Part shown: positions 15,823-17,380 of the stretch, in pieces
Position numbering within the stretch: position 1 is the first letter of the stretch
How the letters are laid out: every line of letters begins with the position of its first letter
DNA from: a bacterium
Lineage (GTDB): Bacteria > SZUA-182 > DTGQ01
Reading direction: 5' to 3'
DNA: 64,000 bases
NCBI GenBank assembly: GCA_040752695.1
Contig: JBFMGO010000009.1
Location: forward strand, 9,789-73,788
Made by a program: the position numbers and the translations under genes
Notes under the pieces: generated by a model
What the model saw: only the letters and a program-made list of their open reading frames with translations
Told to the model about the DNA's origin: nothing
The model's database searches: none

Positions 15823-15959
15823 ATTATGTGAGTACAAATAATGCAACTTTATATGGTTAAGCGAGATGATATCTCGGTAACTTACCATGGCCAGGCAAAA
15901 TAAGGATATATCCTCGAAGTACATCGGAGAGCGAAAGATGACGGCAATCCCCGGATTGC

Positions 15960-16200
15960 CAGAGCATCCAGAGCAATAGAGATCGCCAGAGCAATAGAGA
16001 GAGAGAGAGAGAGAGAGAGAGAGAGAGAGCAGCAGGGAGAGCCAGAGGAGCAAGGGTAGTAGGCATAGTAGTAAAGGTAGCAAAGGCAGCAAGGGGAGCA
16101 AGAGCGGCAAAAACAGCGAGCACGGCGTAAGGAGTAAGAGGAGCAAAAGTGGCAAAAGGAGCGATAGGGACAAAAGGAGCCAGAGGAGCAAAAGGAACGA
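15960..16200. repeat. Polypurine (plus-strand) tract containing a (GA)12 microsatellite (16006-16029) and degenerate 'GGAGCAAAAG' repeats
   Basis: 'ccagagcaatagaga' occurs twice before (ag)12. Following about 150 nt are almost purine-only on the plus strand. The predicted ORFs here (LSLSLSL...) are translation artefacts. Confidence 0.8.
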
Positions 16201-16218
16201 GAATCGGTCATAGAGCGC

Positions 16219-16270
16219 TGGTTTGGATAGAGCTTGGTTGAATAGAGTTTTGTTGGATAGAGCTGGACTG
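16219..16270. repeat. Three imperfect direct repeats 'ttGGATAGAGCt' spaced about 16 nt apart
   Basis: 'ggtttggatagagcttggttgaatagagttttgttggatagagctgg'. Could be a regulator binding array; non-coding region. Confidence 0.5.
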
Positions 16271-17263
16271 AATTCAGAGATTAAATACAGTTGAGTTTCA
16301 GGGGTGTAATGTGGTTTTTGCTGCAAAGGCAGAAATTTAAGGAAAGACAGAAATGATAGAAATGAGGAAGGCATAGTGGTTCCTTACCATTGCCCCAGCC
16401 AACGGCCAGAGTTGACGTATTATAATCAATACTGCCCGATAAATCCGTGTAAATGAGTCTTTTTTATAGGATACATAATCATCCTTCTCCAAGAAGACAT
16501 ACCTGCCATCCAAAAGCAGAATTAATGGTAACAATGTAATTACCATAGCAGTCAAATATGGATTCTTTTTTATCACAAGCTGAATAATATGTCAATCATG
16601 AAATTTTCGCTCATTGGATATCGAGTTATCATTGAAAGTTGTGTATGAGAGGTTAGGTGGTTCGATATCCCGCACATCTTCAATGTGAGGCGGAAACTCG
16701 GATGATGATTCCCTGTTGTTTTTCTGATAATTCCCTGCTGTTCACCTTCAGCACCACGCATGTTCAGAATCTACACTCATTGTGCCAGGGGTATCCTCTT
16801 CATCACCATTCCCCCGTGAGCCCTTCCCCCCTGTGACCTTCTCCTCATAAACCCTCCCCTTTCCCTCAAGCTATTCTATCCACCCGTGTATTATTCCCCG
16901 TATGCCATTTCCTTATGTGCCATTCCTCCAGTGAACCATTTCCCTTCCCCGGTTTTCCCGCGAGCATGAAAATTGCTATCTCATCGTGTAAGCAACTAAG
17001 AGGCCATCCCAAAACCTCCGGCAGACGATAAACCAGTTACTCCAAATGAGGTTTTGGGAAAGGTTCTAAGTACAAGCCGCGTGAATTACACGACCAGTGT
17101 CATGAGTACTGTCATGAGTACCGCTGATACCAAATTATGTTGGGGGGGCTCTTTGCCCCACCTAATTCAGCGGAAAACCTCATCAAAGAGGCTTTGCATA
17201 CACAACCGAGTGCTCTTGTCAAGCCTCAATTGATGGGTAAAATAATGACCGCTGGGACCTCCC

Positions 17264-17292
17264 CACGTCATTCTGAGCGAAAGCTTAGAATC
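17264..17292. repeat. Copy of short palindromic dispersed repeat 'GTCATTCTGAGCGAAAGCTTAGAATC'
   Basis: Related copies at 20605-20640 and 20861-20892, and the perfect palindrome at 12241-12282. Confidence 0.6.
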
Positions 17293-17380
17293 CAGTTACC
17301 CATCAAGATTCGATTGACAGGACACGAGGAGAGGAGCAGGAAACCCATTATTAACCCACTCTTTTTGAAGGGGAGGAAGC

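Follow-up and report, generated by a model that had tools for sequence, protein, structure and literature searches.

The 1.5-kb interval upstream of selC was analyzed in a 64,000-nucleotide (64-kb) stretch of contig JBFMGO010000009.1, referred to here as the window. The selenocysteine (Sec) tRNA gene, selC (tRNA-Sec, anticodon UCA), occupies positions 15730-15821 of the minus strand (ARAGORN; Rfam RF01852, 58.9 bits) and is followed directly on that strand by a 769-codon open reading frame (ORF), 15666..13357, with SelB domains as determined by Pfam. On the other side, a gene encoding LVIVD repeats starts at 17381 on the plus strand and is divergent to selC-selB. The interval lies 5' of selC-selB, is shared with the divergent LVIVD gene, and is not on the 3' side of the tRNA. 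An initial annotation had described a gene-free region adjoining selC, and the tRNA-Sec neighbor was confirmed. Comparison with related loci indicates that the interval comprises two divergent regulatory regions meeting at a synteny breakpoint at approximately 16600-16770. The new element is an apparent selenocysteine insertion sequence (SECIS)-like hairpin ahead of selC-selB, where it follows a conserved mini-ORF ending in UGA and precedes a second leader frame. The selC half (15822-16600, minus strand) appears to be a conserved leader, running from a promoter (P1) through a short ORF (sORF1), the hairpin, the Shine-Dalgarno (SD) sequence and ATG of the second frame (ORF2), and a conserved block (block 2) to selC and selB. 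Its features, together with a terminator-like site, are as follows:

16567..16595, minus: promoter P1, with TTGACA at 16595..16590, a 17-nt spacer ending in TGA (extended -10 TGN), and TAAAAA at 16572..16567.
16426..16476, minus: sORF1, MYPIKKTHLHGFIGQY and then UGA, with an AAGGA SD sequence 5 nt upstream.
16393..16411, minus: 8-bp hairpin CUCUGGCC-GUU-GGCUGGGG, beginning 14-15 nt past the sORF1 UGA; the loop is GGU in relatives.
15814..16374, minus: ORF2, 186 codons, with SD-like AGGA 6-8 nt past the hairpin and then ATG.
15942..15961, minus: 8-bp hairpin TGGCAATCC-GG-GGATTGCCG with a T-rich tail, weakly terminator-like, within a stretch that relatives lack.
15879..15920, minus: block 2, ACTTCGAGGATATATCCTTATTTTGCCTGGCCATGGTAAG, 58-155 nt before selC in all lineages (alignment A2).

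A SelB search of a large protein database identified 3 relatives, on contigs designated L081, L082, and L085; no same-species sequence was found, exact look-ups of the LVIVD, DUF1573, and SelB proteins of the window gave no record, and the SelB proteins of these nearest relatives were 61-64% identical to that of the window. On all 3 contigs a tRNA-Sec gene lay just upstream of selB, and the downstream order was kept (selB, DUF1573, Se/S-carrier, TusA/DsrE, cysteine desulfurase-like, ABC transporter, and LysR genes). A tiny ORF and a 25-nt block were read by eye as common to the upstream DNA of L081 and L082, and a metagenome scan with the 25-nt hairpin block only recovered 2 loci, L083 and L084, each with the sORF upstream. 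L083 is near L082 and has selC-selB downstream of the block; L084 represents the lineage nearest the window, and its contig stops 150 nt past the block, before selC. Because a scan with the block alone also recovered the sORF (L083 and L084) and selC-selB (L083), the association has some independence. The leader comparison covered 5 loci in total: the window, L081, the close pair L082/L083, and L084. The initial annotation had asked whether the flank of selC is variable. Its proximal 800 nt were conserved in four lineages, and the unit kept its order and strand ahead of selC-selB wherever sequence sufficed; only beyond P1 did the neighboring genes vary between lineages.

Synteny with the relatives begins at P1 (BLAST match 16554-16596). 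The consensus, TTGACA-N14-TGN-TAARAA, has columns that were invariant across the 5 loci (alignment A1), and a promoter scan missed P1 because its -10 element ends in A. Downstream of P1, the earlier view that the interval contained no credible ORF did not hold. The 16-codon sORF1 (16476..16426, minus strand) was conserved in four lineages at 15-16 codons and was terminated by UGA in all four, and the second frame (16374..15814, minus strand) was kept open in three. The sORF1 peptide in relatives was MYLKK(I/V)HL(Y/H)GFVGQY or MYPMKKTHLHGFIGQY. Variable columns fell at codon positions 1/2/3 in the ratio 4/1/8, and the sole indel was 3 nt and in-frame, a substitution pattern of the coding type. 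With its SD sequence, this pattern, and the in-frame indel, sORF1 resembles the short leader ORF of a leader-peptide attenuator. Between L082 and L083, sORF1 plus the hairpin showed 0 differences per 100 nt, compared to 6% for ORF2 and 1.9% for selB. Searches of Pfam and NCBIfam with the ORFs of the interval, the ORF2 sequences of relatives, and sORF1 read through its UGA as Cys returned no match.

Across loci the hairpin took the form CUCUGGCC-G(G/U)U-GG(U/C)(C/U)GGGG, with a 3-nt loop and an 8-bp stem in all 5; the loop was GGU in L081 through L084 and GUU in the window. Its minimum free energy (MFE) was -9.9 to -10.7 kcal/mol for the 25-nt element and -8.8 kcal/mol for the bare stem-loop. 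Two variable pairs stayed paired (G-C to G-U, and G-U to A-U or G-C), and the hairpin was identical in L082 and L083 while its flanks differed by 4-6%. The published model of the bacterial SECIS (bSECIS) specifies a stem of 4-16 bp capped by a loop of 3-9 nt, a G at either the first or the second loop position, usually with G or U after it, a UGA-to-loop distance of 16-37 nt, and an MFE of -7.5 kcal/mol or lower (PMC13188914). Every lineage agreed with all four of these constraints: the loop carried GG or GU on the 8-bp stem, the MFE was approximately -10 kcal/mol, and the UGA-to-loop spacing was 22 nt in the window and L082/L083 and 23 nt in L081 and L084. As a base rate, 12 of the 2404 TGA triplets in the window (0.5%) precede an ungapped hairpin of at least 8 bp that agrees with this permissive model, and the leader hairpin is among the 12. 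The leader differs from the bSECIS setting in that the sORF1 UGA is the last conserved codon of a 16-codon ORF, with no conserved coding sequence after it; an in-frame UGA within a conserved coding sequence with Cys homologues was not found, nor were Pfam or NCBIfam homologues.

In the window, L081, L082, and L083, the hairpin shares the strand of selC-selB and precedes these genes by 290-570 nt. An SD-like sequence (AAGGA, AGGAAA, or GAGGGA) stands 6-8 nt past it and is assigned to ORF2 and not to a sel gene. The hairpin's 3' flank, GGCAATGGTAAGGAACC (minus strand, 16378-16394), is identical at 14 of 17 positions to GGCCATGGTAAGTTACC of the block 2 region (15876-15892), 502 nt away; the resemblance is weaker in L081. 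A long-range pairing between block 2 and the 3' arm of the hairpin was considered and rejected, as its 7 of 8 pairs in the window were not conserved in L081.

The window also supplies a SECIS for comparison. The gene for an FdhA-type formate dehydrogenase alpha subunit (41127-43823, minus strand), with 2Fe-2S, 4Fe-4S, and molybdopterin domains, is interrupted in frame by a UGA at 42773..42771, and the SECIS, GUGGCU-GGUCU-AGCCAC, at approximately 42758..42742, lies 18 nt past that codon. By these features fdhA is a bona fide selenoprotein gene, which a plain ORF list splits into two ORFs. The G-G/U-U loop signature is common to the FdhA SECIS and the leader hairpin.

These observations raise the possibility that sORF1 is itself a tiny selenoprotein gene with the hairpin as its working SECIS, the UGA being read as Sec to give a peptide ending ...GQY-U-L. 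UGA was the terminal codon in 4 of 4 lineages, the hairpin agrees with the bSECIS model, the gene adjoins both selC and selB, and the codon after UGA was Leu in 3 of 4 lineages by way of three different codons (UUA, UUG, and CUC). Engineered E. coli constructs for thioredoxin reductase illustrate that a bacterial SECIS can also work from a position past the stop codon, which we counted in favor of this explanation. However, the frames past the UGA ran for 2, 2, 5, and 16 codons with unrelated sequences, and the codon after UGA was Pro in L082. No known homologue carries Cys at the UGA position, the Pfam and NCBIfam searches were negative, and the spacing and loop were unlike those of the organism's own FdhA SECIS. 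We consider a selenopeptide gene unlikely.

ORF2 was 186 codons in the window, 87 in L081, and 94 in L082/L083, open to within 0-70 nt of selC, and it was kept open across these three lineages although the sequences were barely alignable. In shuffles that kept local composition, this openness had P = 0.003 in the window, 0.014 in L081, and 0.006 in L082; the other two frames had 2-6 stops each. The encoded peptide showed a different picture. The pN/pS ratio (nonsynonymous to synonymous differences) was approximately 0.8 and the same in every frame, and the 17 differences between L082 and L083 (6% divergence) comprised 2 synonymous and 15 nonsynonymous changes. ORF2 as a conserved protein was rejected on these values and on the variable frame of block 2. 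The simplest reading is that translation of ORF2 matters and its product does not. Read as real proteins, a Cys-rich minus-strand ORF of 109 amino acids and a Leu-rich one of 186 amino acids were likewise rejected, since a strand so rich in pyrimidines cannot hold stops and the tract was absent from L081, L082, and L083. The leader was pyrimidine-rich in all lineages (57-69% C+T; C/G ratio 1.2-4.1), with C and G fractions of 0.32 and 0.15 in the window, 0.33 and 0.08 in L084, 0.23 and 0.16 in L081, and 0.19 and 0.16 in L082. Block 2 was also present in L085 (88% identity over 42 nt). Its reading frame differed among the lineages compared (L081, L082, and the window), so it is conserved as nucleotides. 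As a sigma-70 promoter for selC, block 2 gave a 9 of 12 match in the window, and no equivalent was seen by eye in L081, L082, or L085.

One could propose instead that sORF1 and the hairpin form an independent small gene or RNA unrelated to selC-selB control, with the rest, including the repeats and ORF2, as neutral spacer. The lack of conservation of the ORF2 peptide, the failure of gene callers to call ORF2 in L081 or L082, the terminator-like hairpin at 15961..15942, and the tandem repeats found in most spacers of the gene cluster would all fit such a proposal. It does not explain why the order and strand before selC-selB were kept wherever sequence sufficed while genes past P1 differed, why ORF2 stayed open far beyond the expectation from composition in three lineages, or why block 2 was conserved. 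We regard an independent unit as unlikely.

The reading that we favor, with a probability of roughly 55%, is that SelB autoregulates its own synthesis through a SECIS-like hairpin in the selC-selB leader, and that the repeats in this leader are neutral. Of the four interpretations offered in the initial annotation, an unannotated RNA came closest. Most likely, the selC half is transcribed as a leader in which a conserved hairpin acts in cis; that annotation had nevertheless missed the conserved sORF, and the purine tract it flagged has no counterpart in relatives. Its suggested Rfam scan (15000-18000 and 16500-17400, permissive thresholds) detected only tRNA-Sec, the other matches being to eukaryotic or viral families with E > 1. 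In the proposed mechanism, the hairpin would bind SelB as an operator, like the hairpin in the selAB leader of E. coli. Plentiful SelB-GTP-Sec-tRNASec would occupy the hairpin, 6-8 nt from the ORF2 SD sequence, and block initiation at ORF2. The untranslated leader, C-rich and G-poor, would then be exposed to Rho or RNases, and less selC-selB transcript would be completed. A ribosome ending sORF1 at its UGA, 14-15 nt before the hairpin, would reach the hairpin base, where it might clear or test the complex or be recoded. Co-transcription from P1 to selC, binding by SelB, and the role of Rho are steps that we infer.

As described in PMC13449736 with citation of the original work, E. coli selAB is repressed by SelB-GTP-Sec-tRNASec, which binds a SECIS-like element located 3 nt from the SD sequence of selA. 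The window resembles that system in that a Sec-machinery operon has a SECIS-like hairpin in its leader, in the position of the hairpin a few nucleotides upstream of an SD sequence (3 nt in E. coli, 6-8 nt in the window and relatives), and in the negative-feedback logic proposed here for SelB-GTP-Sec-tRNASec. It differs in that the operon is selC-selB, the SD sequence nearest the hairpin belongs to the non-conserved ORF2 and not to a sel gene, and a conserved 15-16-codon ORF precedes the hairpin with its UGA stop at SECIS distance. Binding and repression in the window are also putative, unlike those in E. coli.

Several points weigh against SelB autoregulation. The hairpin differs from the organism's own FdhA SECIS in having a triloop and not GGUCU, and in standing 22-23 nt and not 18 nt from the UGA, which is 4-5 nt farther. 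With the loop GUU and GGCU in the 3' arm, the window does not strictly keep the GGUC motif. Only four lineages were available, no double compensatory change occurred in the hairpin, and the diverse frames past the sORF1 UGA offer no conserved read-through product. SelB binding to the leader hairpin is postulated by analogy, and the argument for co-transcription draws on conservation and the absence of a conserved terminator only, while the terminator-like hairpin at 15961..15942, not present in relatives, could end a separate transcript. C barely exceeded G in L082 (0.19 versus 0.16), so the resemblance to a Rho utilization (rut) site is not uniform. As to generality, a covariance model of sORF1 plus the hairpin found the unit in 0 of 84 more distant selB loci.

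The distribution of the unit was narrow. A SelB scan of a species-level genome collection yielded 80 loci, none closer than approximately 50% identity, and neither fuzzy matching nor the covariance model found the leader unit in any of them; 4 more loci with SelB approximately 40% identical likewise lacked it in these searches. The leader unit is known solely from a small uncultured lineage. The ATP synthase beta subunit of the host was nearest to those of unclassified metagenome-assembled genomes (MAGs) at 79-96% identity, followed by Spirochaetota MAGs at approximately 76%. At selB loci of distant relatives with SelB approximately 40% identical, a 92-nt tRNA with a GCA (Cys) anticodon, which resembles tRNA-Sec by length, lies immediately before or overlaps the selB start (L086, 3994-4085; L087, 4003-4094; L088, 2765-2856; L089, 2744-2835). 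They resemble tRNA-Sec-like tRNA-Cys variants known from the literature.

Leader ORFs are known to act as attenuators elsewhere, through translation and Rho or RNA structure, as in tnaC-tnaAB. The leader ORFs of mgtCBR are attenuators of this class (PMC3641672). The selC leader resembles these systems in being long and carrying a short conserved ORF, in its downstream pyrimidine-rich sequence, where C exceeds G and Rho could load, and in a leader frame whose translation, and not its product, seems to matter. In contrast, it has no conserved pair of terminator and antiterminator, the downstream gene is a tRNA, and the proposed signal is the Sec-decoding complex and not an amino acid or Mg2+. 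No attenuator terminator or antiterminator with a U-tract was conserved in alignment A2; the sole site, at 15961..15942, was weak and confined to the window. A more elaborate scheme would have sORF1, its UGA, and the SECIS-like hairpin sense the capacity for Sec decoding. Loading of SelB-GTP-Sec-tRNASec would decide between release by RF2 and Sec insertion at the sORF1 UGA, and the outcome would set ORF2 translation, escape of the leader from Rho or RNases, and in turn the production of tRNA-Sec and SelB. We found no relevant Sec-responsive leader peptide upstream of selC in the literature, and we hold this sensing scheme to be doubtful. If true, the leader peptide would act as a switch keyed to a recoded stop codon and placed ahead of the tRNA and the factor that decode that codon.

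The features that had drawn attention to the interval lie elsewhere in it. All those flagged on the selC side fall within a tandem-repeat insertion, whose components, apart from the terminator-like hairpin listed above, are as follows:

15926..16250, minus: tandem-repeat insertion of approximately 325 nt, between two conserved leader blocks; columns ~150-480 of alignment A2 are found in the window only.
15996-16029: perfect (AG)17/(CT)17 microsatellite, 34 nt, detected by Tandem Repeats Finder (TRF) and a regex scan.
16030..16208, minus: degenerate 9-nt array (plus-strand unit AAGGAGCAA, sense unit UUGCUCCUU) with 18- and 45-nt super-periods, approximately 80% purine on the plus strand, detected by TRF and autocorrelation.
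16210..16264, minus: 15-nt repeat, 3.5 copies of ATAGAGCTTGGTTGG.

The insertion was absent from L081, L082, and L083, all of which span the interval in alignment A2; L085 begins after the insertion region and L084 stops before it. BLAST of the interval against relatives gave matches at 16255-16496 and 15879-15920 with nothing between, and L081 and L082 had merely short pyrimidine-rich stretches at that place. The initial annotation had observed something real but had measured it partly wrongly, and its interpretation was partly supported. A perfect dinucleotide microsatellite was present, but as (AG)17 and not (GA)12; it was the sole dinucleotide run of at least 6 units in 64 kb by regex scan. 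The duplicated unit was confirmed as the 18-nt CCAGAGCAATAGAGAKMG, twice at 15968-16003. The purine-rich block described as a polypurine tract of approximately 240 nt exists, but it is just 80% purine, with 15 T and 35 C in 246 nt, and its purine runs stay below 10 nt everywhere except in the microsatellite. Its autocorrelation was 0.62, 0.59, and 0.54 at lags of 9, 18, and 27, and the tract is a degenerate 9-nt tandem array. The pyrimidine fraction reached its minimum (0.17-0.20) at approximately 15970-15990 and its maximum (0.71-0.73) at approximately 16709-16769. The C/T-rich block was real as well, and with the purine-rich block it forms the two most extreme strand-composition segments of the 64 kb; fewer than 0.1% of windows were as extreme.

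The insertion contained repeats with periods of 9, 15, 18, and 45 nt plus the dinucleotide, and the 15-nt repeat is an expansion of a motif, GCTCTATCC, that is single-copy in L084 and L081. With the dinucleotide excepted, all periods are multiples of 3, compared to 15, 16, 17, 19, and 9/18 for intergenic repeats elsewhere in the window. This fits the notion that ORF2 translation matters, modestly so given that just 2-3 independent arrays were counted. Most spacers of the selenium-utilization cluster carry a short tandem repeat of their own (7289-7321, 8569-8628, 10399-10473, 12360-12414, and 13263-13356), with periods of 15-19 or 9/18. The window SelB is 754-769 amino acids long, compared to 640-651 in relatives, and in-frame repeat insertions add approximately 110 residues. 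These consist of an N-terminal extension with 24-nt repeats (15539-15597) and low-complexity inserts, among them a 12-nt 'IDKN' repeat (14070-14107) and a 21-nt repeat (14393-14437), some of them between winged-helix domains. The genome appears to be unusually repeat-prone. The flagged feature is an ordinary repeat expansion, not present in those relatives whose sequence covers the interval, and the repeats are probably neutral passengers of such a genome in a spacer free to vary, tolerated because the ORF2 frame stays unclosed.

A structural or contingency role would hold that (GA)17 and the purine tract tune selC-selB through H-DNA or slippage. Simple-sequence contingency loci are phase-variable dinucleotide repeats, and the likeness here is a long perfect dinucleotide tract inside an open frame: a 34-bp homopurine/homopyrimidine mirror repeat, unique in 64 kb, lies within the ORF2 frame, and 34 is not a multiple of 3. 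The initial annotation had called the whole run mirror-repeat-like and prone to H-DNA. The 34 bp of (AG)17 do form a homopurine mirror repeat, but the remaining ~200 nt do not, and H-DNA would be possible for the 34-bp (GA)17 alone. Phase variation found little support. After (CT)17 all three frames are open for 78-146 nt, and a 2-nt slip would move the ORF2 stop from 15814 to 15857 or 15882, a shift of just 43-68 nt; since all three frames stay open past the tract, slippage would probably switch nothing off. Unlike a contingency locus, ORF2 encodes no conserved product and would not be substantially truncated by slippage. In addition, L081, L082, and L083 retain the remainder of the leader but not this tract, purine runs of 10 nt or more are confined to the microsatellite, and the tract does not fall between a -35 and a -10 element. 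We judge such a role very unlikely. Less plausible than any other proposal considered here is that the purine-rich strand is an antisense GGA-rich small RNA, such as a sponge for a CsrA-type protein. The many AGGA/GGAG motifs on the plus strand at 16030-16208 would suit a sponge, but no plus-strand promoter or terminator frames them, Rfam gave no match, and the tract is again missing from L081, L082, and L083.

The other half of the interval (16770-17380, plus strand) is the upstream region of the LVIVD gene. It combines two conserved features, a pyrimidine-rich tract and the invariant AGCATGAAAATTGCT box, with insertions peculiar to this genome:

16769..16960, plus: pyrimidine-rich block, 71-73% C+T, with loose ~15-nt repeats CCATTYCC...GTG.
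16963..16977, plus: invariant 15-nt box AGCATGAAAATTGCT upstream of LVIVD genes in three lineages (L090, 9869-9893; L092, 3965-3983).
17007..17059, plus: 12-bp inverted repeat TCCCAAAACCTC / GAGGTTTTGGGA with a 29-nt loop, fold z = -3.2; not seen in relatives.
17098..17121, plus: tandem duplication of TGTCATGAGTAC; L090 has a similar single copy, GTGTATGAGTAC, at the corresponding place.
17222..17322, plus: structured repeat of approximately 100 nt, with an outer 11-bp stem, an inner hairpin, and a UUCUGAGC-GAAA-GCUUAGAA hairpin; -32.6 kcal/mol, z = -5.2.

LVIVD orthologues with 56-57% identity were found in two relatives, L090 and L092, where they adjoin a HAD, radical-SAM, and geranylgeranyl-reductase cluster and not selC. 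None of the selC leaders of relatives (0 of 4) had LVIVD beyond P1, so the adjacency of LVIVD and selC is specific to the window and the breakpoint falls at approximately 16600-16770. Pyrimidine tracts similar to that of the window precede the AGCATGAAAATTGCT box in L090 and L092. Because the tract and box are common to the three LVIVD upstream regions, the C/T-rich block belongs to the LVIVD control region. The three regions also share a GTATGAGTAC-like motif, which is the tandem duplicate in the window, and the SD and start region; the tandem units that had been noted near 17105 were confirmed as TGTCATGAGTAC, twice at 17098-17121. The window's LVIVD upstream region is longer by approximately 300 nt, which include the 17007-17059 hairpin and a copy of the structured repeat. 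This copy (17222-17322) overlaps a promoter-like site at 17216-17243 by promoter scan. A second full copy lies at 20797-20915 and a partial one at 20600-20640, and the repeat precedes two plus-strand genes. Its core, CGTCATTCTGAGC-GAAA-GCTTAGAATCCA, is a GNRA-capped hairpin inside a longer stem with 2 compensatory pairs between the two full copies. The repeat had no Rfam family match, and similar palindromic units lie upstream of the LVIVD orthologue in L092 at approximately 4150-4330. Two candidates were not adopted here. The sigma-54 consensus is TGGCAC-N5-TTGCW, and the AGCATGAAAATTGCT box resembles such a -24/-12 element except that AG stands at the position of the GG doublet. CATTYCC motifs were considered as enhancer sites; there were 3 exact copies only, too short for local significance.

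The breakpoint bears on the earlier suggestion that the interval is an integration scar or a mobile-element remnant at tRNA-Sec. Genomic islands do occur at selC, for example LEE and SHI-2 in enterobacteria, and the interval is like them in adjoining tRNA-Sec and in having a distal flank that varies between lineages. The flank past P1 differs between lineages, LVIVD adjoins selC in the window only, a divergent tRNA-Val is found on the corresponding side in L082 and L083, and a stretch of 18 nt (16654-16671) shows 83% complementarity to the selC T-arm. That stretch, however, matched no tRNA model even at E = 10; the tRNA-Val alignment was unconvincing, and a tRNA-Val remnant at 16600-16690, supported by neither alignment nor Rfam, was rejected. 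Integrases target the 3' ends of tRNA genes, but the interval adjoins selC at its 5' end, and selB comes directly after the tRNA. A search of the 64 kb for the 24-nt 3' end of selC, tolerating up to 3 mismatches, found a single copy, which leaves no att repeat. No integrase, transposase, or mobility gene was found among the flanking ORFs scanned against Pfam, GC content was ordinary, and the proximal 800 nt are the conserved part. The scar suggestion was not borne out, and we consider it extremely unlikely. Between the divergent tRNA-Val and P1, repeats of approximately 26 nt, ATGTTCCCCACACCCTTAGATAGAGG, are spaced by approximately 60 nt on the minus strand (L082, 8890-8990; L083, 9580-9790), with 2 copies in L082 versus 4 in L083, so that copy number varies between near-identical genomes. 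Adjoining tRNA-Val in L082 (8051-8653) is a 200-amino-acid ORF made up nearly entirely of tandem 'QLNQKIDSQIG' units and coiled-coil-like.

For annotation, the lesson of this locus is that striking low-complexity DNA can be the least informative part, and that its short conserved neighbors carry the signal. For the biology, the balance between tRNA-Sec and SelB is known in detail for E. coli only, where SelB represses its own operon through a SECIS-like hairpin in the selAB leader. If the reading favored here is true, SelB autoregulation would extend to a different operon layout and a translated leader would be added to its mechanism, and the leader hairpin would provide a compact RNA target for SelB binding studies.

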